Source of the DNA: a virus
Direction: 5' to 3' (one strand)
IMG/VR virus record: IMGVR_UViG_3300031159_000070
Coordinates: 73,048-137,047 of that record
Length of the DNA: 64,000 bases
The notes below the pieces were generated by a model that searched no databases, was not told the origin of the DNA, and saw nothing but the letters and a program-made list of their open reading frames with translations. Shown here one piece after another: positions 22,061 to 33,309 of the stretch (position 1 is the stretch's first letter; the number at the start of each line of letters is the position of its first letter). Position numbers and translations under genes: made by a program.

Positions 22061-25000
22061 GTGGCCAATAAGCCAACCGATATCCACTATGAAGGCCAGA
22101 TTCTTTTCGGATCTGTCGGGCAGTTCGGTCTTGGTGACCCAGGGTTTCCCCGGGGCAGCGCTGTTGGAACCGCCGCCGGCTCATCATCTGCATCTGGTGG
22201 CGGTGGCCGGCTTACCGCACCACTTCTCCCTGTCCATCTCGTCGGGCATGTACTTTTCGGCGCGATAGGACAGTTCGGGCTTGGGGATGCGGGCGATCTC
22301 AATCCGATCGTTGAAGCCGCTGGCTCCGCATCGGCCAGCGCTGAAGCCAACGCGTCAGCGACCACCGTTCTCTCATCGACCGCCTCGGCTGTCGGTTCGG
22401 CAACCAGCACAGGTGCTGGAACCGGCATATTCGATGCGGCGGCCAGCGCCGATGGTGACGCGCAAGCATCGGCGACTGGCCTTGGTTTGGCGGTCGTCGC
22501 GGCAGTAGGCAGCGCATCAGGAACTTCGCAAGCAACGAGTGCGAGTGTTGCGACTGCTGCAGCCTCCGGCAGCTCATCCTCGCTCGCAGAGCTTGTCGCA
22601 GTTGGTGCTGCGACCTCGGCCGCGGCAGCTTCGAGCTCTGCCGCAGCTACAGCTGCCGCCATTGGCGCTGCTGCGGTTCAAGCTATCGGTGTAAGCACTG
22701 GATCTTCTGCAGCCGAAGGAACGTCAGCGCCCGTTGCTGCTGGAGCCGGCGAGAGCGCTGCATCTGCTGCTGTTGCCGGCTCGCTTCACGCACGAGCCGA
22801 TGCGACTGGCTCGGTTTCAGGAACGTCAACCGCATCAGCTGCGGCGTTGCTGACAGCTGCGGCGACTGGCGCGAGTTCCGCAGCAGGCAGCGCAACAGCT
22901 GCCGGGCGAGAAGTTGCCCTCCAGACGCGCGTTGACCGCGAGGGCCACGTTCTCTTCGGTGCGCTGGGCCAGTTCGGGCTTGGTGATGCCGGCGAGATCC
23001 CCGGTATCCTGCTTGCTTCGGCCGGAATCAGCGCTGGCGTAGCGGCGGCAGATGCAATCGGGCGGTCAATCGCAACCGCTGCCGGATCGGCTGTCGCCAC
23101 CTCCACCGCCGCCGCGTTTGGTATCGGCGAGATCGGCACGTCCGGAACCGTTGCCGGACAGAGCACCGCTGCGGGCGTTGGCAGCGCCATTGCTGCTGCT
23201 GCTGGATCCGTTGTCGACGCGAGCGGTTCCGCTGACGGCCATGCACTTTCACAAGCTTCCGGCGTCGGTGTTGCTATCGGCAACGCGTCGGCCAGCGCCG
23301 TCGGCAGATCAACATCTGATGCCGCTGGCACTTCTGCAGCCGTTGCTTCCGCGGTCGCGGCCGGTGCAAGCATCATTGACTCGTCAGGCGTTGCTGCGGC
23401 TGCCGCGACAGCTGCCGCGCAAGGTGCCGCCACTGCAGCCCGCGCTGGGATTGTTTCGTGTTCTGCTGCTGTCAGCGGGAACACTGCTGCCACCGCATCG
23501 GCCTCAGGCAACGCATCGGCCGAGACAACCGCTCTTGCTGATGGCGCCTCTACGAGCGAGGCAGCTGGCAGCACATCCGCCACGGCCGATGCGGACGGGC
23601 GCGGTCGAGCTGTCGCCCCACTGAGGCCCGTTGACCGCGAAGGTCACGTTCTCTTCGGTGCGCTGGGTCAGTTCGGACTTGGCGATGCTGGCGATAATCT
23701 TACTGGCACCGTTCAGGCCGTGGGCTCGAGTAGTGGTGCGGCGCAGACATCTGCGATTGGCGCGTCCACTGCAGCAGCGGATGGCGTTGCAGCTGCTGTC
23801 GCCAGTACGAGCGGCGTTGCGTCAACGATCGCTGCCGCGTCCGGTCAGTGCCAGGCGCAGAGCGGCGTCGCCGGTGCTGGCTCGACGGTCATCAACGCAA
23901 GCGGCTCTGCTGAAGCTGCGTCCGGCGCTGAGGGGCGCGGCGCATCCATAAGCGCAGCCGCGGCCACGGCGGCAGGCGCAAGCACGACCAGCGCGAAAGG
24001 CGCATCGCGGTTTTCGGCTTATGGCCTTATCATCGCCATGGCCGCCGCGCTCGCGCTGTGGATTGCTACCCACAGCAGTATCGGCCTGTCCGTTTCTGGT
24101 GCTTCTGCTGCAGCCCGTGGGGCTTCCATCGCGGCAAGCGCAGGGCAGGCGAGTGGCACCAGTGCTGTCGATGGTGGCGGTGCATCAACGCATGCCGCAT
24201 CTGGGTCAAGCGCCGGCGCAGCCACAGCATCTGCCGAGTCGGCGCTGACCGGCGAAGCGAGCGGTCTGGCGCAAGGTCTTGCAGCCGTCGAAGGTGTCGG
24301 TCAGTCGACCGCGGCAAGCGCGGGTGCTGCTGGCGGTGATGCCGCGAGCCAGGCTGTTCTGGCAGCGACTGCCAGCGCAGTCGGATCGGCGCAAGGAACC
24401 GCGAACGCTGCAGCCGACGGCGCCAGTTCCGCTGCCGGCGTCGGTACAGCGATTGGCCAGAGCGAGGTTGCCGGCGAGGCCAGATCGTCTGCTGCATCGG
24501 CCGGATCCTCCCCTGGCCTTGCAACCGTCGAAGGCACTGGCGCGGCCACAGCCGCTGCTGTCGGTGTGTCGGATGCTATTGCATCCGTGTCGGCCGGCTT
24601 CTCGGCCACCGACGCTGGCGTCGGCGCGGTTGCCGGTGTTGCAACGGCGGCGGCGAAGGCCGAAGCGACCGCTGCCGGGACAGGCAAGGCCGAAGGATCG
24701 GTTGCTGTCCTGGGCGCTGGAACCGGCATCGCCCCGGCCGCTGGCAGTGGCGATGGTGCTGCAGAGGCCGCAGCTGCTGGCGAAGCCGCGGCGATCACTG
24801 TCGGCGAGACGGCCGGCTCGAGCACTGTTGCTGGAACCGGCGCTGCCACCGCGGAAGGCTCCGGTTCCGCGATCGGCACCAGCGTTGTCAGCGGCGGCGC
24901 AAGTGCGACAGCTGCCGGCGTCGGACAGGTTGCTTGCGTCGCAACGTCGGAAAGCACCGGAGCTCCGATAGCGGCTGCTGCTGGTGGCGTGTCAGGCGAT

Positions 25001-26362
25001 GCCATCGTTGATGGTCAGAGTCTGCCGCTTGTCACCCTCTCCGGCGACGGTCTTGCCGAGGGCTCTGCGACCGCTAACGGCGTCGTCGCCGCAACGCATG
25101 CATCCGCCGCCGAAGCCGTAGCCGCATCGCTTGTTTCAGCTGTTGGCGCTGCGACGGCTCAAGCCCGTGGGTCCGTCGAGGCGAGCTCGAGCGTCGCCGG
25201 CGTTGTCTTCTCGACAGCAGCCGCGACCGGTGCGGCGGCGGGCAGCTCGACTGCCGATGCGGAAGCTGCTTGGACGGCAGCTGCTGCCGGCGACGCGGAT
25301 GCCAGCGCTTCTATCAGTGGTGATGCGGAATCAACCGCCGCAGCTGCCGGTCGGTCCGAAAACCTGGCCGCGGTTGATGGGCGAGCTGCGGCCCGTGCTG
25401 ATGCTGCAGGTGTCGGTGCCGGCGTCGCTACTGCCGATGGCGCACTTCGCGCGGATGCGTTTGCTGCAGGCTTTGGCCAAGGCGAAGCGGCAGCGGCGGC
25501 GCAAGGAGCGGCGGCGGCGGCTGCTGCCGGGGAGGTCTCCGCCAGCGCGAGCGTGGCAGGCGCAGGCGCTTCGACGGCAGCTGCTGTTGCGGAGAGTGCC
25601 GGCGCTGTTGCAGTCGAGGGCAGTGCTGCAGCCACTGCCGCTACCGTTGCAACGGCCGAAGCTGTTGCCGATGCTCATGCGACCGGTGCTGCGACGGCGA
25701 GCGCAGCTGGTGTTGCTGCTGGTGAGGCGAGCGCTGTCGCCGATGCCCGAAAGCTCCTGTCGGGCGCCGGCGCGAGCGAGGGCCAGGCGAGCGCAAGTGC
25801 CCACGGCGTTGCGCTACGCATGGGAGCGGGCGCTGCGGTCGGCGAGGCCTCCGCGGCTGCGACGGGCCGGGCGACGCATTCGGCTGTTGCGGCTGCGTCC
25901 GGTTCCGCAGAAGTCGCGGCACAGCACGATTCGATCCTGTGGTGGGAAGGCCTGGCCTCGGGCCACGCCACCGCCGCCGGCGTCGGTAAGGCGCTGCATC
26001 AGCTCAACATCCAGTCCGATCACTGGCCTGCAGCGGCGCTCGCCGTGTCCGCGGAGCCCGCCGCTGAGATCGACGTGGTTGCGCAGGCGCCGGTCGCAAT
26101 TGCTGTAAGTGTGCGTGGCGAGGCACCACCAAAGACAGCGAAGTCTCGCAAGCTGCATGTTGCCACGCGCGTGATGTCGCTGAGCGAAGTCGAAGTCTCA
26201 CACGATAGTGCGATGGAAATGTCGGTCTCGAGCGGCCCGGCGGTGATCATCTCGACGCTTGTTCTCGAGCTGGTCGAGACGGGGTCGAGCAACGGACCCG
26301 AGATCGACACCGATGCATCTCATGGGCCGAAGGCAAGAATTGCAACCCGAGCGAGGTCGTGA
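22061..26362 (+). CDS. 1433-aa Ala/Gly/Ser-rich repetitive protein (filament or scaffold-like)
   Basis: Long A-x-G-x-S-x-A-type repeats; four GxxLFGxxGQFGLGDxG motifs. Confidence 0.75.
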   Translation: MANKPTDIHYEGQILFGSVGQFGLGDPGFPRGSAVGTAAGSSSASGGGGRLTAPLLPVHLVGHVLFGAIGQFGLGDAGDLNPIVEAAGSASASAEANASATTVLSSTASAVGSATSTGAGTGIFDAAASADGDAQASATGLGLAVVAAVGSASGTSQATSASVATAAASGSSSSLAELVAVGAATSAAAASSSAAATAAAIGAAAVQAIGVSTGSSAAEGTSAPVAAGAGESAASAAVAGSLHARADATGSVSGTSTASAAALLTAAATGASSAAGSATAAGREVALQTRVDREGHVLFGALGQFGLGDAGEIPGILLASAGISAGVAAADAIGRSIATAAGSAVATSTAAAFGIGEIGTSGTVAGQSTAAGVGSAIAAAAGSVVDASGSADGHALSQASGVGVAIGNASASAVGRSTSDAAGTSAAVASAVAAGASIIDSSGVAAAAATAAAQGAATAARAGIVSCSAAVSGNTAATASASGNASAETTALADGASTSEAAGSTSATADADGRGRAVAPLRPVDREGHVLFGALGQFGLGDAGDNLTGTVQAVGSSSGAAQTSAIGASTAAADGVAAAVASTSGVASTIAAASGQCQAQSGVAGAGSTVINASGSAEAASGAEGRGASISAAAATAAGASTTSAKGASRFSAYGLIIAMAAALALWIATHSSIGLSVSGASAAARGASIAASAGQASGTSAVDGGGASTHAASGSSAGAATASAESALTGEASGLAQGLAAVEGVGQSTAASAGAAGGDAASQAVLAATASAVGSAQGTANAAADGASSAAGVGTAIGQSEVAGEARSSAASAGSSPGLATVEGTGAATAAAVGVSDAIASVSAGFSATDAGVGAVAGVATAAAKAEATAAGTGKAEGSVAVLGAGTGIAPAAGSGDGAAEAAAAGEAAAITVGETAGSSTVAGTGAATAEGSGSAIGTSVVSGGASATAAGVGQVACVATSESTGAPIAAAAGGVSGDAIVDGQSLPLVTLSGDGLAEGSATANGVVAATHASAAEAVAASLVSAVGAATAQARGSVEASSSVAGVVFSTAAATGAAAGSSTADAEAAWTAAAAGDADASASISGDAESTAAAAGRSENLAAVDGRAAARADAAGVGAGVATADGALRADAFAAGFGQGEAAAAAQGAAAAAAAGEVSASASVAGAGASTAAAVAESAGAVAVEGSAAATAATVATAEAVADAHATGAATASAAGVAAGEASAVADARKLLSGAGASEGQASASAHGVALRMGAGAAVGEASAAATGRATHSAVAAASGSAEVAAQHDSILWWEGLASGHATAAGVGKALHQLNIQSDHWPAAALAVSAEPAAEIDVVAQAPVAIAVSVRGEAPPKTAKSRKLHVATRVMSLSEVEVSHDSAMEMSVSSGPAVIISTLVLELVETGSSNGPEIDTDASHGPKARIATRARS

Positions 26363-26658
26363 TGATACCCCTTGGCAATACTGTCGTCGTCTCTGCTGTC
26401 ATCAGGGACAAGGCCACGAAGGCGCTGATCGATCCTGAAACGCTGCGCTGTCGCGTCAAGCGGCGCGCGAAGGACGCGGAAGAGACCGTTTATGTGTACG
26501 GCACGCATCCCGAGTTGACCCGGCGCAGTGTGGGCACCTATGAGCTGAGAATCACACCAGACGCGCCTGGCGCCTGGATCTATCGTTGGGAAGGCGACGG
26601 ACCGTTTGAGAGCGCGCGGGAAGGCACGTTCAACATCGAGCCGAGCAATTTCGGATGA
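26359..26658 (+). CDS. Small Ig-like (BppU-like) structural protein
   Basis: GNTVVV..IDP..RRSVGTYELRI...PGAWIYRWEG.G..ESAREG.F.I. Confidence 0.6.
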   Translation: MMIPLGNTVVVSAVIRDKATKALIDPETLRCRVKRRAKDAEETVYVYGTHPELTRRSVGTYELRITPDAPGAWIYRWEGDGPFESAREGTFNIEPSNFG

Positions 26659-26942
26659 CGGACTATTCTCCTGAAAGCTTCGCCGACCATCCAGAATCGA
26701 TCCAGGAGCTTCGCTCCGACAGGACGCAGAATGCCGCTGACTGGTCACCGCGCGATGCGCTGATTGCGATGTTGAGAAAGATCGATCGCGGCGAGATCGA
26801 CTCCGATGCGCTGGTTGTGGTCTGGCGCCAGCGCAAGGGCGAAGGCGTAGCTGAGTCGGGTTTTGCTGTGGCAAGTCCGGATGTGCATGTAACGCTCGGC
26901 TTGCTGGTTCACGCCCAGCACAAAGTGATGGGATTGCCCTGA
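26655..26942 (+). CDS. Hypothetical phage protein
   Basis: ATGA overlap; WSPRDALIAMLRKIDRGEI. Confidence 0.65.
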   Translation: MTDYSPESFADHPESIQELRSDRTQNAADWSPRDALIAMLRKIDRGEIDSDALVVVWRQRKGEGVAESGFAVASPDVHVTLGLLVHAQHKVMGLP

Positions 26943-27157
26943 TGGCTGACGAAGACGAGGATGAGATCGAGATCCCAGAGCGTACCTTCGAGCAGGCGCT
27001 GGAAGGGCTCGTTTCGGTCGGCGGCGCGGGACCTGGCGGAGCGCTGCGGTTCTATGATGCCGAGGGCCATATCCTGACGCCTGAGCAGATCGCGCGGCGC
27101 CCGCCGCCGAGGAAGGCGCCCAACATCAAGCTGAAGTTTCGCGCTCGCCGGGATTAG
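26942..27157 (+). CDS. Hypothetical protein
   Basis: TGATG stop-start coupling. Confidence 0.5.
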   Translation: MADEDEDEIEIPERTFEQALEGLVSVGGAGPGGALRFYDAEGHILTPEQIARRPPPRKAPNIKLKFRARRD

Positions 27158-27356
27158 TCTCGTCGCACCACGCCATGAGCGCGCCGATCTTCTGAGTTGC
27201 TTCGGCTTCGATCTCGGCGCAGGTCGGTCTTCCGAGTGCTCTGTCGATGCGGTCCAGTATGTGCTGTCGCGCGAACGGAGTTGCCGGGCCGCCGTAGATC
27301 ATGTGGTAGGCGTCATTCAAAAGGCGCTCCAGCTCTTTCACGCGATCGGCAGTCAT
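27126..27356 (-). CDS. Hypothetical protein
   Basis: ATGA overlap with the upstream minus-strand gene. Confidence 0.55.
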   Translation of the reverse strand: MTADRVKELERLLNDAYHMIYGGPATPFARQHILDRIDRALGRPTCAEIEAEATQKIGALMAWCDETNPGERETSA

Positions 27357-27655
27357 GGGCGGGGTTCCAGCTCAGCCTCGAGCTCGACCACTACCGCGTC
27401 GACCTCATTCAGGAATTGCAGCGCCGCGCGGGCCAGCTTCTTCTGTCTCTCAAAGGACTTCGAGTAGATCATGTCGCGATAGAGCGTCGGGTCGAGGATG
27501 TGTCCGACGTTGTGCATGTGGTGCTCCGCTTCCAAAAGCGTTTCGAGGTGCGGCTTCACCGCCTTCAGGTTCTGATACAGGAAGCCGATCGTGTCCATCG
27601 CCAGCTTGTGCTCGGGCGATACGTTGTTCCTGTACTTCTCGGCTGGATCAACCAT
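27353..27655 (-). CDS. Hypothetical protein
   Basis: Helical ORF containing GHILDPTLYRD. Confidence 0.55.
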   Translation of the reverse strand: MVDPAEKYRNNVSPEHKLAMDTIGFLYQNLKAVKPHLETLLEAEHHMHNVGHILDPTLYRDMIYSKSFERQKKLARAALQFLNEVDAVVVELEAELEPRP

Positions 27656-27801
27656 GAATGCCCATCCCGGGTGCCAAAGCATAGGGTTCTAGTCTAGGAG
27701 CACTAGACCGCTCAGTCGAGCAACTATTCGGGCTTTCCACTGCCGACTTCTCGTCATAGTATTGATCTACGGAGACCGGTTATCGAATGTAGGTGTTCGC
27801 C

Positions 27802-28188
27802 ATGATTGATCGTCGCTCGTTTCTCACTGCAGGCGCTGCGCTTCTGCCGGCCTCCTGGCTCACTCCTGCACGTGGCGCTGAGACGCTCGCCGGCGAGCCG
27901 ATCATCGGCACATATGCCATCACCCTGCCGCGCGACGGCGTTTACCGGGTGATGGCGGACGGCATCTGGGCCAAAGATCCGACAGAGCTGTCGATGTTTC
28001 TGACGCGCGGCTCTGACATCAGCATGATCGCGGCTGCGGTTCGCGCGCCGCGGCCGGGCGAGGGCGGCGAGCTGGTGCTGGCGACGCGCATCGATGCCAA
28101 GGCACACGATCGCATCTCGATCGAGGTCTCGAGCGATACCAACTCGATGCCGCGGCTTGCCGCGATGCCTCTCATCTTCTACGCGTAA
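27802..28188 (+). CDS. Tat-exported small protein
   Basis: MIDRRSFLTAGAALL..ARGA twin-arginine signal. Confidence 0.65.
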   Translation: MIDRRSFLTAGAALLPASWLTPARGAETLAGEPIIGTYAITLPRDGVYRVMADGIWAKDPTELSMFLTRGSDISMIAAAVRAPRPGEGGELVLATRIDAKAHDRISIEVSSDTNSMPRLAAMPLIFYA

Positions 28189-28204
28189 ATCTGTCTAGCG
28201 TCAC

Positions 28205-28254
28205 TTGACCTGAATCTGCGTCGGGCATAGCGTCACCTCTACAGGAGGTGGCGC
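28205..28254 (+). promoter_or_regulatory. Sigma70-like promoter overlapping an SD-sequestering hairpin
   Basis: TTGACC-N17-TAGCGT; gcgtcacctc/gaggtggcgc stem covers AGGAGG. Confidence 0.5.
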
Positions 28255-28554
28255 ATGAATGCTTTGGAGCAACATCTAAAGCCCGATCAGCTGTTGCGGC
28301 TGCGATGTCTCGAGCTGGCGCTCAACAACCGGCACGCGTTCTCCGATGGAGAGCGACGATCGTTCACGGAATGGGCTGATCTCTTCCAGCAGTTCGTCAT
28401 GACCGGCGTGCCCTTCACGGATAATCCGTGGATCACGGGGAACGTCACCCGCCAGCATGAAATCATGCAGAAGAACCCAGAGCTTGCCAGGAAGCTCATT
28501 GCCGAAGTGAGCGAGGCTCGCGGCGAAAACTCAGCACCAGCAACCCAGGAGTAG
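28255..28554 (+). CDS. Small protein with a scaffold-like C-terminal motif
   Basis: Strong SD; NPWITGNVTRQHEIMQKNPELARKL resembles the scaffold C-terminus. Confidence 0.7.
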   Translation: MNALEQHLKPDQLLRLRCLELALNNRHAFSDGERRSFTEWADLFQQFVMTGVPFTDNPWITGNVTRQHEIMQKNPELARKLIAEVSEARGENSAPATQE

Positions 28555-28558
28555 TGAC

Positions 28559-28783
28559 ATGCCTGTGCAGATTCGCATGGATCATACCGGTGACACCCGC
28601 TTTACGTTCGATGCTGCCGATGAGGCGGCTGTCGCCGAAGCCGAGGCCCGTTTCAAGGAGCTGACCGGAAAGGGCTTCCGCGCCGCAGCCTTGGGTGAGA
28701 GCGGTGAGCCTGGACGTCTGCTCAAGGAGTTCGATCCGACCGTCGAGCGCACGCTCTTCATTCCGGCTCTGCAGGGCGGCTAG
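28559..28783 (+). CDS. 74-aa protein ending in di-glycine (ubiquitin/ThiS-like C-terminus)
   Basis: SD AGGAG; ends TLFIPALQGG-stop. Confidence 0.7.
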   Translation: MPVQIRMDHTGDTRFTFDAADEAAVAEAEARFKELTGKGFRAAALGESGEPGRLLKEFDPTVERTLFIPALQGG

Positions 28784-28786
28784 TCC

Positions 28787-29432
28787 ATGTGGCCACCAGA
28801 GGGGATCAATGATCTCCAGTATCTGGAAAGGGAGATCGAGCGGGCCGCGACGCGATCTCCAGTACATGGGCATGCAGGTGGTCGTGGATGCTGCGGATCA
28901 GGCCGACAACACTGGCTTGATGGGCTTACGCATCGATCGGGCTCTTCTCGATCCTGTAGACAGCGATGTCGGGATCGGCCTCTGTGCTCCCAATTTCGAG
29001 GCGGAGCTGGCTGAACACGCGCGGCGTATCTCGCAGGCCGACGTCGTTATCGACCGCTACAATGATTTCGGGGGCGACAAGAAGGCCAGCGAGAAGTCCA
29101 TCAAGCTGCTCAAGGAAAACCTGACGCCCAAGCAGCTCGAAACCTATGAGAAACATCGCTGGTTCGAGGTGAAGGGCGGCGACACCGGCCGGACCTACCG
29201 CATCTATCACCGCCGGCAAATGAACGTCTCGGTGCGCAACTGGCGCGGCAAGCACAAACACGGGCTCTGCTTCCTGCCCACCGGCGGCCTCGCCATTGGA
29301 GATATCCTGCTCGGACAGAAGATCGCGCTCGAGCTCTACGAGCACGATGCCCTCAAGGTCGCCAACCGGTTCGATCATGACCCTGGCATTTGGGTCACGC
29401 CCTTCGAAACTTCTTTCGAAGAAGTGGTCTAG
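28787..29432 (+). CDS. Cys-containing partner protein (apparent frameshift near 28850; alternative start 28866)
   Basis: LLKENLTPKQLE..FEVKGGDTGRTYRI..N..GLCFLP.G.L..GDILLGQKIALE..E..ALKVANRF. Confidence 0.6.
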
Positions 29433-29489
29433 TGACGCTTGACGTCTCCGCTGGCTGACCTTACACGTGATTCTGCCACGAGCGAGCGG

Positions 29490-29564
29490 TGTGGGGTGGA
29501 GCAGTGGTAGCTCGCTGGTCTCATACGCCAGAGGTCGTCGGTTCGAATCCGACCCCCGCAACCA
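29490..29564 (+). tRNA. tRNA-Met (CAT), initiator-like body with an altered anticodon stem
   Basis: Cloverleaf TGTGGGG..CCCCGCA-A-CCA, D arm GAGC/GCTC, anticodon loop CTCATAC, GTTCGAATC T-loop; TTGACG-N17-TACACG upstream. Confidence 0.9.
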
Positions 29565-29657
29565 ATCGATCCCATCCGAGATAAAAGCCGCCGGGGATGG
29601 GAAAAAGGAAGTGGTGACAGCGCGCATCTCGCGCCAACACACGGAGGCTTGCCATTC

Positions 29658-30092
29658 ATGTTCAAGAGCGCAGCATACCCCGATACTCCGCTCGATCACT
29701 CCAAATCGCGCGATTTCATGCGCACCAACCTCGGCCTTTCGCCAGTACAGGATTCGCTCGAACTGAATGGCGAGGCGGCAACCGACGTCACGCTCGAAGC
29801 CTATCAGACGACGCTCGTCTCGGCAGACGCTGGCGCCCAATACAATCTGCCGGATGGCGAATACGTTGGCCAGCGCAAGCTGCTGAAGGCCGATGTCTCC
29901 GACGCAGGAACATGCGTCGCTTCCGACGCGGCCAAGGCGAAATTGATCGTCAATGGACTCCATGGCCAATCGGCAGCGAACGTCACTGCGCTCACCTTCG
30001 ATGCCGATGGCGAACTCGCTCTCCTCGAGTGGACAGGCGCGAAATGGAATGTCGTCTACGCAACCGCTACGGTCACGGATGATTCGGTATAG
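29658..30092 (+). CDS. Beta-rich virion (head decoration/fibre-like) protein
   Basis: SD GGAGG; YNLPDG..GQRK..LTFDADGELALLEWTGAKWNVV pattern. Confidence 0.55.
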   Translation: MFKSAAYPDTPLDHSKSRDFMRTNLGLSPVQDSLELNGEAATDVTLEAYQTTLVSADAGAQYNLPDGEYVGQRKLLKADVSDAGTCVASDAAKAKLIVNGLHGQSAANVTALTFDADGELALLEWTGAKWNVVYATATVTDDSV

Positions 30093-30112
30093 CGCGCGGC
30101 AAGACCAATTTG

Positions 30113-30145
30113 AACGGGCACCTTCGGGTGCCCGTTGTATTTTGA
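30113..30145 (+). terminator. Intrinsic terminator
   Basis: aacgggcacc-ttcg-ggtgcccgtt followed by a T-rich tail. Confidence 0.75.
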
Positions 30146-30269
30146 TTGCAAATCAGCAACACCTTTGCACCTTTCAGAAAAAAATCTTGACAGGCGCATT
30201 TTTGCTGGTTGACGCAAGAGCCAATTTGGTCTAGCACCACGATACCATCGGCTCATTGCGAGCGATGAG

Positions 30270-30338
30270 CTATGGGCCCTCCTTGGGCGTTGTTTCCTCC
30301 CTAGACTTGGGCCGTTCGGAAATCCGGACGGCCTTTTT
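30270..30338 (+). ncRNA. suhB/MmgR (alpha-r8)-like small RNA
   Basis: CTCCTTGGGCGTTGTTTCCTCCCTAGACTTGGGCCG core, then ggccgttcgg/ccggacggcc terminator and T run; TTGAC boxes upstream. Confidence 0.75.
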
Positions 30339-30466
30339 CGTTGGGGGATCGTTCAGTACGGCGAAGGCGGGGTGCCTGCGCTTTGCGATTGTCCTGAGAT
30401 GTGCTGCTCAATACGCCCACTCGATTTTGGAGTGCGGCAGGTCACGGCTTTCCGAAAAAGCAGCGC

Positions 30467-30703
30467 TCAGGGTCGTCGATCGATGCGGGACCATTTGGGC
30501 TCGTCGAGACCTCGCTCGACGCGCCGCATCTTCGTCTTTACCGCCGCAAACGAGCGGTGGTCTGAGGGTGAGCTCGGCGTAAAAACGATCGTCCTGTGCC
30601 GAGGATGCGTCAGCCTGTAATGCTGATTCTTGGTCTGCTCGATATCCCAGCCACGCTTCTTCGCGTAGCTCAATAGCTCGCGGCGGTAGTGTGCGGGGTT
30701 CAT
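30467..30703 (-). CDS. HicA-like (dsRBD-fold) toxin
   Basis: RELLSYAKKRGWDIEQTKNQHYRLTHP..IVFTPSSPSDHRS..KMRR. Confidence 0.65.
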   Translation of the reverse strand: MNPAHYRRELLSYAKKRGWDIEQTKNQHYRLTHPRHRTIVFTPSSPSDHRSFAAVKTKMRRVERGLDEPKWSRIDRRP

Positions 30704-30713
30704 GGGCGTCTCC

Positions 30714-31067
30714 TCAGGCGGCACGCTTGATGGAGACTTGCTGAAGCTGCCACTGCAGAATGATCTTTTCGCGCAGCCACGCTCGAAAAAGAGCTTCATG
30801 CAGCGGTTTCGAGTAGGACCAGTGTCCATTCACTCCCATCTGTCGCGCGCGGCTGCAGGCGACCTCGAGCTTTAGGATAAGTGCTCGCGTATTGTGGATC
30901 GCGGCCTTGGCATCGACCAGGAGATGCGCGGCTGGATCAACGAGCATATTCGGATCGTCAATGATCGGCGCCCATTTCGGAATGTCGCGACGATCATAAC
31001 TGCCGATCTTCGCACGTAAATCAGCACAGCTTTGTTGCCAGGATTTGACGTCCTGCAGCTCGATCAT
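30714..31067 (-). CDS. Hypothetical protein
   Basis: SD AAGGAG; GHWSYS..LHEALFRAWLRE. Confidence 0.6.
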   Translation of the reverse strand: MIELQDVKSWQQSCADLRAKIGSYDRRDIPKWAPIIDDPNMLVDPAAHLLVDAKAAIHNTRALILKLEVACSRARQMGVNGHWSYSKPLHEALFRAWLREKIILQWQLQQVSIKRAA

Positions 31068-31242
31068 GGTGGTCTCCTTGGGGCTCGCGTCCGGGTCGGG
31101 CAGGCGGTAGTCTCACGCCACTTGCCATCATGCGTCTAGTATAACTGGTCTTGATGCCGTCCAGCAAGGATCAGTCCAGCTCTCCACAGCTGGGTCAGTC
31201 GGGCGCCGTTCGCCTTCGTCCGTAATCGATCAGAGTGCCGGG

Positions 31243-31338
31243 CCGGCGCGATGCCGGGTCGGATCACCTCAACTGCCAGCTTGTCTGCCGGCGCGATGCC
31301 GGTCGAGAGCCGAGGCCAACCGCGGGCGCGATGCCTGC
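31243..31338 (+). promoter_or_regulatory. Three GCGAT-loop hairpins in the scaffold leader
   Basis: ccggc-GCGAT-gccgg twice and gcgggc-GCGAT-gcctgc, then GAGGA SD. Confidence 0.7.
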
Positions 31339-31351
31339 ATTGAGGATTGTG

Positions 31352-32224
31352 ATGTTCGACTTTCCACTGACCGTCAAATCAATCGACGAAGTTCCCGAAG
31401 AGTACCGCATCCTTTACGAGCTGAATGACGACGGCGAGGGCGCGACGCTCATCGCTAGTCTGAAGCAGCGCATAGAGGGTGTCGGTCCTGCCGGACAACG
31501 CGCTCTGCAGGAAGAGCGCAAGGCCCGGGCTGCTGCCGAAAAAGCCGCGAAGGCTTGGAAGGAGGCGGCCGGTGTCGAAACTCCGGAAGAGCTCACTGCC
31601 AAATTCGAGGAAATCGAATCCGAGTGGCAGCAGAAGCTCGAGGAAGCGCAGGCCACTAAAGGCGGCGACAAGGACGAAGATCTGAACAAGCGATTGCAGC
31701 AGGTCAGATCCGAAGTCGAGCGCGAGTGGAGCAAAAAGCTCGATCGGGAAATTGCCGAGCGCAAGAAGGCCGAGGAAGAGCGCGACCAGATGTTCAAAGA
31801 CATGCAAAGGAACATGCTGGAGCGCGAAGCCATGGAGGCCATCGCAGCGCACAAGGGCAAGCCTACGCTGCTCAGGCGCGAGGTTATGGCCCAGCTCAAA
31901 CTCGCCAAGACGGACGCCGGCTGGAAGGTCCGCGTCGTCGATGAAGATGGCGATGAGCGCTACGACGGCGATGGAAAGCCGATGACGGTCCACAACCTCG
32001 TGGCACTGATGCGCCAGTCCGATGACTACGCGGCTGCTTTTGAGGGCGATGGCGCCACTGGAAGCGGTTCACGGTCGCCGGCCGGCGGCACGAAGATCTC
32101 CTCAAAAACCAACCCCTGGTCCAAAGCGACGTTCAACGCAACGGAGCAGGCCAAAATCCTGAAGTCGAATCCTCAGCTCGCCAAGCAACTGCAGGCGCAG
32201 GCTGAGGCCGAGGCTCGCAGGTAA
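31352..32224 (+). CDS. Capsid scaffolding protein
   Basis: VKSIDEVPEEYRILY N-terminus, coiled coil, GSGS linker, NPW C-terminal helix; directly upstream of the capsid gene. Confidence 0.85.
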   Translation: MFDFPLTVKSIDEVPEEYRILYELNDDGEGATLIASLKQRIEGVGPAGQRALQEERKARAAAEKAAKAWKEAAGVETPEELTAKFEEIESEWQQKLEEAQATKGGDKDEDLNKRLQQVRSEVEREWSKKLDREIAERKKAEEERDQMFKDMQRNMLEREAMEAIAAHKGKPTLLRREVMAQLKLAKTDAGWKVRVVDEDGDERYDGDGKPMTVHNLVALMRQSDDYAAAFEGDGATGSGSRSPAGGTKISSKTNPWSKATFNATEQAKILKSNPQLAKQLQAQAEAEARR

Positions 32225-32343
32225 GGCCACAGCTCACTTCCGAAGTTTCAAGACCCCGTCTCTCGTGAGAGTGGCGGGGTCTCGTCGTTTCGGGAGCCGC
32301 GTCGGCGCGCTGAGGGCCACCAGCGAAAGAGGGCACCCCAGAA

Positions 32344-33309
32344 ATGACTGAGACTCGCCTTGCAGACGTTATCGTTCCCGAGCATTTCAATCAGTATTCG
32401 ATGCAACTTACCACCGAGTTGTCTCGATTCCGGCGCTCTGGGCTTGTGGTCGACTTCTCCGCGGAGCTTGGCTCCCAGATGGGCGGCACGACCGTCAACA
32501 TGCCGTACTTCAACGATCTGGAGGGTGACGACGACGTCGTCGACGACACCCAGGATCTCGAGCTCAACAAGATCACGACCGGGCAGGATGTTGCGGTCAA
32601 GCTGTACCGCGCCAAGGCTTTCGGTGCAACCGACCTGTCCGGCGATCTCGCCGGCGCCGATCCTGTCAAGGCGATCGCCACGCGCTTTGCCGAGTGGTGG
32701 ATCCGCAAGGAGCAGGAGGTTCTGATCTCGGTCTGTCAGGGCGCGCTCGGTTCGGCGCTGATGACCGATAACGTCCTCGATATTTCAAACCTCGAGGGCG
32801 CTGCCGCAAACTTCGATCCCTACAGCTTCATCGATGCGCAGGCGCGTCTCGGTGACCACCAGGATCTTCTGTCTGGCATTGCCTGCCACAGCAAGACCTA
32901 CACGGCCATGAAGAAGGCTGATCTCATCGAGGAGATCCGGCCGTCGGATGGCGGTGATCCCATTCCGACCTACATGGGCAAGGTCCTGATCGTCGATGAC
33001 AAGATGCCTTATTCTGAGGGCGTCTATACGACCTTCATCTTCGGCCAGGGCGCCATCGGCTACGTCTCCGCAAGCCCGAAGGTTCCCGTCGAGGTCGGTC
33101 GCGAGCCTCTGAAGGGCGGTGGCCAGGACTATATCGTCCAGCGCCGCTTCTTCGTCATGCACCCGCGCGGCGTGCGCTGGTCTCCGCAGCCTGGCGTCCC
33201 GGCGAGAGCGACGCCCACCAACGCCGAGCTGGCCAATACGGCCAACTGGCAGCGCTGCTATGACCCGAAGAACATCCGGATCGTGATGTTCAAGCACAAG
33301 GTCGGCTAA
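32344..33309 (+). CDS. Major capsid protein
   Basis: TRLADVIVPEHF..GGTTVNMPYFNDL..AGADP..IPTYMGKVLIVDD..MHPRG..PTNAELA..NW.R.YDPKNI. Confidence 0.92.
   Translation: MTETRLADVIVPEHFNQYSMQLTTELSRFRRSGLVVDFSAELGSQMGGTTVNMPYFNDLEGDDDVVDDTQDLELNKITTGQDVAVKLYRAKAFGATDLSGDLAGADPVKAIATRFAEWWIRKEQEVLISVCQGALGSALMTDNVLDISNLEGAAANFDPYSFIDAQARLGDHQDLLSGIACHSKTYTAMKKADLIEEIRPSDGGDPIPTYMGKVLIVDDKMPYSEGVYTTFIFGQGAIGYVSASPKVPVEVGREPLKGGGQDYIVQRRFFVMHPRGVRWSPQPGVPARATPTNAELANTANWQRCYDPKNIRIVMFKHKVG

Follow-up and report, generated by a model that had tools for sequence, protein, structure and literature searches.

A linked gene pair in phages and Bradyrhizobium encoding a Gly-Gly-ending protein of predicted beta-grasp fold and a partner with an invariant cysteine

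The DNA analysed here, referred to as the window, is a 64,000-nucleotide stretch of viral sequence corresponding to bases 73,048 to 137,047 of the 137,047-base record IMGVR_UViG_3300031159_000070, which IMG/VR classes as a provirus with an estimated completeness of 95%. Our subject is a pair of adjacent genes in this window, which we term gene A and gene B. Gene A encodes a small protein ending in Gly-Gly and gene B encodes a partner with a single invariant cysteine. They represent two large unannotated families, and the case made here for what they do rests on prediction and comparative genomics. Both the terminus of A and the cysteine of B are under constraint, the two genes are strictly linked, and no gene for a ubiquitin-type activating enzyme (E1) was detected in the phage records searched that carry them. 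The features of the pair are as follows.

28547-28551, plus strand: AGGAG, a Shine-Dalgarno-like sequence 7 bases 5' of the gene A ATG, read from the sequence.
28559-28783, plus strand: gene A, 74 amino acids, predicted beta-grasp with C-terminal Gly-Gly, from the open reading frame (ORF), its homologues and an AlphaFold2 model.
28775-28783, plus strand: last codons of gene A, GGC GGC TAG, with the Gly-Gly codons at 28775-28780; the protein ends ...LFIPALQGG.
28787-28843, plus strand: remnant of the ancestral gene B start, 19 codons, from tblastn with residues 1-19 of P0025 and P0026.
28787-29014, plus strand: ORF in which the remnant of the B start runs on out of frame to 29014.
28843-28845, plus strand: deletion junction with about 136 codons gone and a change of frame, from tblastn with full-length relatives.
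28809-29432, plus strand: gene B in its present form, stop codon at 29430-29432, three candidate starts.
28695-29432, plus strand: frame with the cysteine motif (YRI, N, GLCFLP, GD, QK, E, AN), from the ORF list.
29073-29375, plus strand: conserved C-terminal domain of B, residues 70-170 of the 188-residue form, from model confidence and fold search.
29268-29270, plus strand: invariant cysteine codon TGC, C135 of the 188-residue form, at the end of predicted strand 4 and 9 residues before the next helix.

The preliminary description of this locus had singled out a 74-residue protein ending LFIPALQGG, and the ORF at 28559-28783 bears that reading out. Homologues of gene A number 23 among 5.8 billion clustered proteins; together with the window protein, 24/24 end in Gly-Gly. 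The same terminus was found in 18/18 A rows from viral loci (13 distinct loci once the duplicates L006, L008, L009, L013 and L014 are dropped) and in 79/79 genome loci, which hold 65 distinct sequences. The terminal Gly-Gly, the cysteine of the partner and the linkage of the two genes had been named beforehand as the points on which the preliminary observation could fail, and across these homologue sets it failed on none of them. We also looked for A-B fusions and for precursors that extend past the Gly-Gly, and rejected both, on evidence of a kind that the search tool itself grades as weak. Three longer A proteins turned up, two of which are over-called N-termini that still end in Gly-Gly; the third is a read-through product, apparently frameshifted. 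An apparent A-B fusion in locus L050 (2326-2623) is really a frameshift inside A in one metagenome-assembled genome, with the first 24 residues in the frame of B and the others in a different one. The split reflects a sequencing error or, alternatively, a damaged copy of the gene.

The neighbouring gene with the quoted cysteine motif is likewise present. Gene B has candidate starts at ATG 28809 (207 residues), ATG 28866 (188 residues, the database call P0024) and ATG 28872, and GAGGGG at 28799-28804 lies 4 bases before the first of these. When 1.84 billion proteins were searched with a profile of the B C-terminal domain, 7,039 cluster representatives matched at E<=0.001 and 4,219 at E<=1e-10. 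The cysteine is invariant in 15/15, 61/61 and 150/150 aligned homologues. Residues invariant among the 150 are L86, Q90, Y111, N120, C135, D146, Q151, K152, E156 and A166 (numbered on the 188-residue form, as throughout).

Linkage of the two genes is equally strict. All viral loci found with A (3/3) have B just downstream. Where viral loci were found with B, A lies directly upstream on the same strand in 15/17, the other 2 being cut by a contig end, and A is upstream in 79/80 genome loci found with B, the remaining one also being cut. Wherever upstream DNA is present, then, A directly precedes B (3/3, 15/15 and 79/79), and the A stop and B start abut or overlap. Viral loci found with A or with B number 20 in total, and A and B are the only ORF clusters common to all 13 distinct ones. 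The other ORF clusters, considered as candidates for a third conserved gene, are mostly antisense shadow ORFs of GC-rich DNA.

Similar gene pairs had been mentioned in the preliminary description as hypothetical genes of rhizobia. Such pairs are real, and many of the genome loci are titled Bradyrhizobium. Gene A occurs in 70/101 genomes of the genus of G006, a genome whose locus is titled Bradyrhizobium centrosematis, and some genomes of this genus have several copies (2 to 7 matches, with 7 in G270). Some of these matches are partial or split, suggesting that degenerating copies reside on prophages or other mobile DNA in addition to the syntenic chromosomal locus. An even sample of the class yielded A in 1/301 genomes, the centre genome itself, and an even sample of the phylum yielded B in 5/401; all matches in these samples were strong, distant cellular homologues being out of their reach. 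In 36/80 genome loci the DNA upstream of the pair can be aligned to that of the B. centrosematis locus, where the neighbours are genes for an SLT_2 transglycosylase, a shikimate-dehydrogenase-like protein, a MaoC dehydratase and a LuxR/PAS regulator. That many Bradyrhizobium species keep the pair in a syntenic position on the chromosome, with housekeeping-type genes around it, argues that phage counter-defence is not its sole purpose. Its cellular distribution is narrow, yet within that range the pair is common, and it is a chromosomal module, not phage cargo alone.

The AlphaFold2 model of A (predicted local distance difference test, pLDDT, 85) consists of two strands, a helix and three further strands, in that order, and a floppy tail. 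Fold matches from Foldseek and two VIA-align lists are nearly all to beta-grasp proteins, and include the Raf Ras-binding domain, PB1, ubiquitin, UBX, UFM1 and the sulfur carriers TtuB, MoaD and a Mth1743-type protein. The best Z is 5.4 and the best Foldseek E is 0.039. Because these scores are modest, the description of A as a ubiquitin-, ThiS- or MoaD-like beta-grasp protein with a functionally constrained free C-terminus is one supported by prediction only. A Pfam scan of A gave no match at E<=1 apart from a chance match to FLAD1_M at 0.18, a search of host genome G006 with the Pfam ThiS model did not report the A locus, and a profile of A found chance matches only among PDB sequences. Neither A nor B matched PHROGs, NCBIfam or PADLOC beyond chance level, and tblastn of B against the phage collection gave no match. 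The ESM Atlas gave only unnamed, mostly viral clusters, those near B being 75-86% viral.

In the model of the C-terminal domain of B (about 100 residues, pLDDT 92-98), two helices precede a four-strand meander that ends at C135, and a loop then leads to two more helices, the first of them at 144-157. In a wide VIA-align search of this domain the best match is Ubc9 (Z 5.6, root-mean-square deviation 2.9 A over 82 residues), followed by RWD domains at Z 4.8, 4.7 and 4.5. Of 50 rows, 17 are titled as ubiquitin-conjugating enzyme (E2), UEV or RWD, and about ten more are complexes that we take to contain such domains (FANCL, Knl1, BRISC, VPS37A, Cap2 and BubCD-BubB). These matches weakly suggest an E2-like fold; the term is the best available description of the predicted fold and not a statement of family membership, the Z values being too low to prove homology. 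The preliminary description had offered the cysteine as a thioester or a transpeptidase site. An E2-like thioester site fits better, and a transpeptidase or protease site less well, since no histidine is invariant among the 150 B sequences and the nearest folds, weak as the matches are, are UBC, RWD and UEV domains and not sortase or papain.

We predicted the complex of A with residues 66-175 of B, supplying both as alignments. The interaction score ipSAE (interaction prediction score from aligned errors) was 0.92, 0.91 and 0.92 in three runs, versus 0.01 for the best of 3 controls; in calibration, the ipSAE mark was reached by 58/80 solved complexes and by 2/110 mismatched pairs. The runs have at least 98% of contacts in common, with a partner pLDDT of at least 94. 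Predicted contacts place A residues 66 and 68-74 on B residues 135-143, 146 and 149-154, and in the model A residues 7, 43, 66 and 68 are packed against the helix that follows the cysteine. We take this arrangement to mirror that of a charged, closed-state E2, which holds the ubiquitin tail and has the L8/I44/H68/V70 patch packed on its crossover helix. The prediction supports A-B binding and a tail-at-cysteine geometry, and shows neither. The earlier suggestion of a protein-tagging module is partly supported, gaining by prediction a ubiquitin-like (Ubl) fold, a dedicated partner and an invariant cysteine where the tail would dock.

No E1 or JAB gene had been visible in the window, and searches with hidden Markov models extend this to the whole 137,047-base record (ThiF PF00899, 0/1; Prok-JAB PF14464, 0/1). 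Host genomes with the pair do have ThiF-family genes (5/5; over the cut-off in 4/5), none of them adjacent to it; the sole nearby ThiF match is to the Rossmann motif of the shikimate-dehydrogenase-like gene. The A tail, LF[IFY]PxLxGG, resembles that of the host MoaD, AFFPP[MI]TGG, and hhalign of A with host MoaD aligns the last 11 columns only, at a probability of 8%. With ThiF-family genes in the host and a MoaD-like tail on A, activation in trans by a MoeB/ThiF-type enzyme is a reasonable guess and no more. One Bradyrhizobium genome also encodes a third ThiS-family protein (L111, G007:C1:6317597-6317764), which ends ...FFPYLEGG, a tail between those of MoaD and A.

The first description, in which gene A is immediately followed by gene B, passes over a rearrangement: the ancestral start of B is now out of frame with the cysteine domain. 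The closest relatives of B, P0025 (318 residues) and P0026 (291 residues), start 4 bases past the A stop. By tblastn, residues 1-19 of P0025 match window positions 28787-28843 and residues 156-313 match 28845-29387 in a different frame, while residues 20-155 have no counterpart. This pattern indicates that the window B lost its N-terminal domain through an out-of-frame deletion of about 136 codons, and the 19-codon remnant of the B start is now fused to 56 out-of-frame codons. The sequence GATCTCCAGTA is present on both sides of the deletion junction, at about 28825 and about 28851. A contig of another sequencing run (X3, 28804-29027, zero differences) spans the junction, which is therefore not an artefact of one assembly; a third run, X2, contains 0.91 of the sampled words, and its contig ends only 10 bases past the junction. 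Most phage copies of B carry a variable N-terminal domain. Short forms also occur naturally, the Bradyrhizobium copies having about 140 residues, so the truncated window B, in which the cysteine domain is an intact ORF with putative translation, may still work.

Distant relatives of the pair were found in two further phages. In Virus Rctr197k (KX853510.1, locus L121) an A-like gene (hhalign E 3.5e-12, probability 97.6%) is followed, after 18 bases, by a B-like gene for a protein of 268 residues, Rctr197k_112, in which cysteine is aligned to cysteine (hhalign 61.7%, E 7.7e-5; Foldseek BFVD E 6.3e-6). A second B-like gene (L121 5234-5971, 245 residues), about 1.2 kb past the first, keeps the cysteine and has no obvious A-like ORF before it. 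The A-like protein (L121 2800-3228) has 143 residues, and by eye its N-terminal half looks like a degenerate second beta-grasp; if this duplication is real, the protein would be a tandem Ubl like ISG15. Annotations about 1.3-2.8 kb upstream of it comprise a CRISPR repeat region and a transposase-like gene. The 595-kb megaphage LR756511 has an A-like gene whose product ends ...AGG (hhalign probability 96.8%), separated by one 98-residue ORF (L122 1124-1420) from a B-like gene. This B-like gene keeps the cysteine and matches the Rctr197k protein at a tblastn E of 1e-9; its hhalign probability against the family is only 8%. Y111, C135 and D146 persist in these relatives, and N120 and Q151-K152 do not.

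Several known systems resemble the pair in part. Bil types I and II, Bub ('6E'/DUF6527) and type II cyclic oligonucleotide-based antiphage signalling systems (CBASS) with Cap2/Cap3 likewise join a Gly-ending beta-grasp protein (or tail) to a cysteine-bearing E2-type domain on mobile or accessory DNA, and Cap2 and a BubCD-BubB-BubA entry are among the weak fold matches of B, at Z 2.9 and 3.3. PMC11601603 and PMC1779556 describe such operons as supplying an E1 of their own together with, in most cases, a JAB or another peptidase. The A-B pair, unlike them, consists of two genes only, has no ThiF in six virus records and no Prok-JAB in the one searched, and gave no PADLOC, Pfam or NCBIfam match. 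MoaD with MoaE, and the ThiS pairs, share with it a small beta-grasp protein ending in Gly-Gly, the tail F-[FYI]-P-x-x-x-G-G, a predicted insertion of that tail into the partner and an E1 encoded elsewhere. They differ in that the alignment covers just the last 11 columns, the ThiS model misses A, B is neither MoaE- nor ThiG-like in the fold lists, and the pair is phage-borne. Eukaryotic E2 (UBC) and the non-catalytic RWD/UEV domains have the same order of elements as the model of B, from a helix at the N-terminus through a meander of four strands and a loop to helices at the C-terminus, and the one invariant cysteine of B falls between strand 4 and the following helix. B is shorter, however (about 100 versus about 150 residues), lacks an HPN motif and any sequence similarity to them, and equivalence of the cysteines at the residue level is not established.

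Phages are already known to encode a protein of the general type of A. TAPI (gpI) of lambda and T1 is a ThiS/MoaD-like beta-grasp protein with a functionally important C-terminal Gly (PMC1779556). TAPI, whose partner is the TAPK JAB/NlpC peptidase, is encoded in the tail-assembly cluster and has an additional domain at its C-terminus, whereas A is free-standing, ends at Gly-Gly, has no JAB in its own record and lies outside the tail genes. Full-text searches of the literature listed no paper on a phage or Bradyrhizobium pair of a Ubl and an E2-like protein lacking an E1; the two families may nevertheless appear in the family tables of PMC1779556 or in later censuses.

We tentatively favour, at not quite even chances, the view that A and B form a minimal Ubl/E2-like thioester module that would be charged by a host E1 in trans. 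Among the readings considered it best accommodates the constrained Gly terminus, the invariant cysteine at the predicted dock and the Ubl- and E2-type folds, which, like the complex geometry, are predicted. The free Gly-Gly carboxyl end of A would be the reactive group, and the UBC/RWD-type C-terminal domain of B would bind A tightly and hold its tail against the single invariant cysteine. The terminal Gly would be adenylated by a ThiF/MoeB-type E1 encoded apart from the pair, probably that of the host, after which A would move to B Cys135 as a thioester and from there onto a target amine, the target being chosen by the variable N-terminal domain of B. The window B, with its N-terminal domain deleted, would correspond to a short form like the natural 140-residue chromosomal copies of Bradyrhizobium. 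Possible as well, if rather doubtful, is the more elaborate proposal that the pair is a minimal Ubl system without its own E1 that parasitises the sulfur-carrier machinery of the host, with A mimicking MoaD, the host supplying MoeB/ThiF, B representing a hitherto unrecognised, very small E2-like clade with thousands of members and no Pfam model, and the N-terminal domains picking the host or phage proteins to be tagged.

A number of results weigh against the thioester module. The A-like protein of Virus Rctr197k ends ...IPG, keeping the terminal Gly but not the Gly-Gly. B has no HPN motif, and its invariant Asn, N120, lies 15 residues before the cysteine and is replaced in Rctr197k. The best Z of B, 5.6, is below the best Z of 7-8 that is typical of the tool for models without a clear match; Foldseek of B against PDB gave no match, and in a second structural look a phage P1 head chain came first at Z 4.6, with E2s only at Z 2.7. 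Searches with sequence profiles gave no help to an E2 assignment either. Pfam matches to 61 B members were scattered and at chance level, NCBIfam and PADLOC gave no true match (a chance match to PDC-M02B, at E 0.028, fell on one long B), the B profile found no E2 and only chance matches among PDB sequences, and hhalign of B with three Prok-E2_B sequences gave a probability of 0.9%, against a profile that is thin, the family being present in 3/201 genomes. The complex score measures the confidence of the model, which may have reproduced a memory of E2~Ub structures. The interface is very large, at about 90 contacts, and looks like that of a stable heterodimer rather than a transient E2~Ubl. Placement of Gly74 at Cys135, and the match of the latter to an E2 catalytic cysteine, derive from a list of predicted contacts and are to be taken as provisional. 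ThiF is absent from the five other virus records with the pair (0/5, of which two are at least 90% complete; 0/6 with the window's own), as is Prok-JAB from the own record (0/1), and every characterised bacterial conjugation operon introduced in PMC11601603 encodes its own E1. Finally, no RNA sequencing run is listed as containing the stretch.

As a rival reading, A and B would form a stable non-covalent heterodimer, in which A is regulatory or inhibitory and its tail plugs a pocket of B at the cysteine, with no thioester and no conjugation. The MoaD tail in MoaE, or an antitoxin-like lid on an enzyme, would be the analogy, and Gly-Gly would be needed only since nothing bulkier fits. Besides the size of the interface and the complex score, the close coupling of the two genes, whose stop and start overlap, the MoaD-like tail and the failure to find an E1 or deubiquitinase nearby (ThiF in six virus records, Prok-JAB in the own record) favour this arrangement, and several copies per genome (up to 7 matches) together with phage carriage are typical of addiction-type or accessory modules. 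We nevertheless consider it unlikely. A non-covalent plug does not obviously demand a stop directly after Gly-Gly in all of about 120 sequences, and the fold searches of both proteins lead towards Ubl and E2 structures. The comparison with toxin-antitoxin systems is also mixed: two coupled genes and multiple copies fit, but A is conserved to the same extent as B, which is not the rule for antitoxins, it has no DNA-binding match and is a predicted beta-grasp, and no toxin, antitoxin or helix-turn-helix family was matched by either protein.

Sulfur transfer offers another use for the same parts. Here A would be of the MoaD/ThiS type and would be adenylated by host MoeB/ThiF to give a thiocarboxylate, and B would either load A through a persulfide on its cysteine or be the enzyme that transfers sulfur from A-COSH to a small molecule, a tRNA or a cofactor. 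Partners of sulfur carriers are commonly encoded apart from their E1, as would be the case here. The invariant cysteine at the tail docking site, the MoaD-like tail, the presence of TtuB, MoaD and a Mth1743-type protein among the fold matches of A and the chromosomal copies of Bradyrhizobium among metabolic genes are all compatible with such a role. B itself fits it poorly, its fold matches being to UBC, RWD and UEV domains and not to MoaE, ThiG, TtuA or rhodanese, and its variable N-terminal domains suggest protein targets. The Pfam ThiS model misses A, and in the 13 distinct viral loci no gene for a sulfurtransferase, cysteine desulfurase or cofactor synthesis is conserved beside the pair, so that we regard a sulfur-carrier system as quite unlikely. 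Very unlikely, in our estimate, is a phage counter-defence decoy, as the preliminary description had suggested. Here A would mimic the Ubl or the nucleotidyltransferase (CD-NTase) tail of Bil-, Bub- or type II CBASS-type immunity and soak up or misdirect the host E1 and E2, with B helping in capture or discharge. Ubl conjugation is a known antiphage mechanism (PMC11601603), many phages carry the pair (the 20 viral loci and the mostly viral Atlas clusters), it lies in accessory regions outside any conserved structural or replication block, and without an E1 of its own it must meet a host enzyme. The occurrence of A in 70/101 genomes of the G006 genus and the common upstream flank of 36/80 genome loci sit badly with a decoy, PADLOC gave no match, and the chromosomal locus of Bradyrhizobium speaks against counter-defence as the sole role.

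Ubiquitin-like conjugation in bacteria and phages is a young field. The reach of the pair extends to 7,039 B cluster representatives, 70/101 genomes of one genus and many phages, including a 595-kb megaphage. A widespread pair without an E1 would show either that a Ubl/E2 core is able to run on a borrowed one, or that the layout of a beta-grasp protein with Gly-Gly and a cysteine domain serves some other chemistry. Were the pair to parasitise the sulfur-carrier machinery of its host, it would connect the sulfur-carrier systems directly, in function, with those that tag proteins.

Genes for head scaffolding and major head proteins lie downstream of the pair, at 31235-33309, and the flanking gene content places the pair in an accessory part of what is a large phage genome. 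A 1,433-residue Ala/Ser/Gly-rich ORF at 22061-26362 has no PHROG match at E<=0.01, and the small ORFs at 26359-28554, before gene A, have either no PHROG match at that threshold or chance-level matches only. In the ORF at 27793-28188 a twin-arginine signal was matched weakly (E 0.038). When the region 27000-31000 was compared with phages by blastn, the sole match was to a tRNA gene, located as follows.

29490-29564: tRNA-Met (CAT), 58 bases past the B stop.

Contigs of 4 sequencing runs pile up on this tRNA gene to depths of up to about 215, because its sequence is common to many unrelated organisms.

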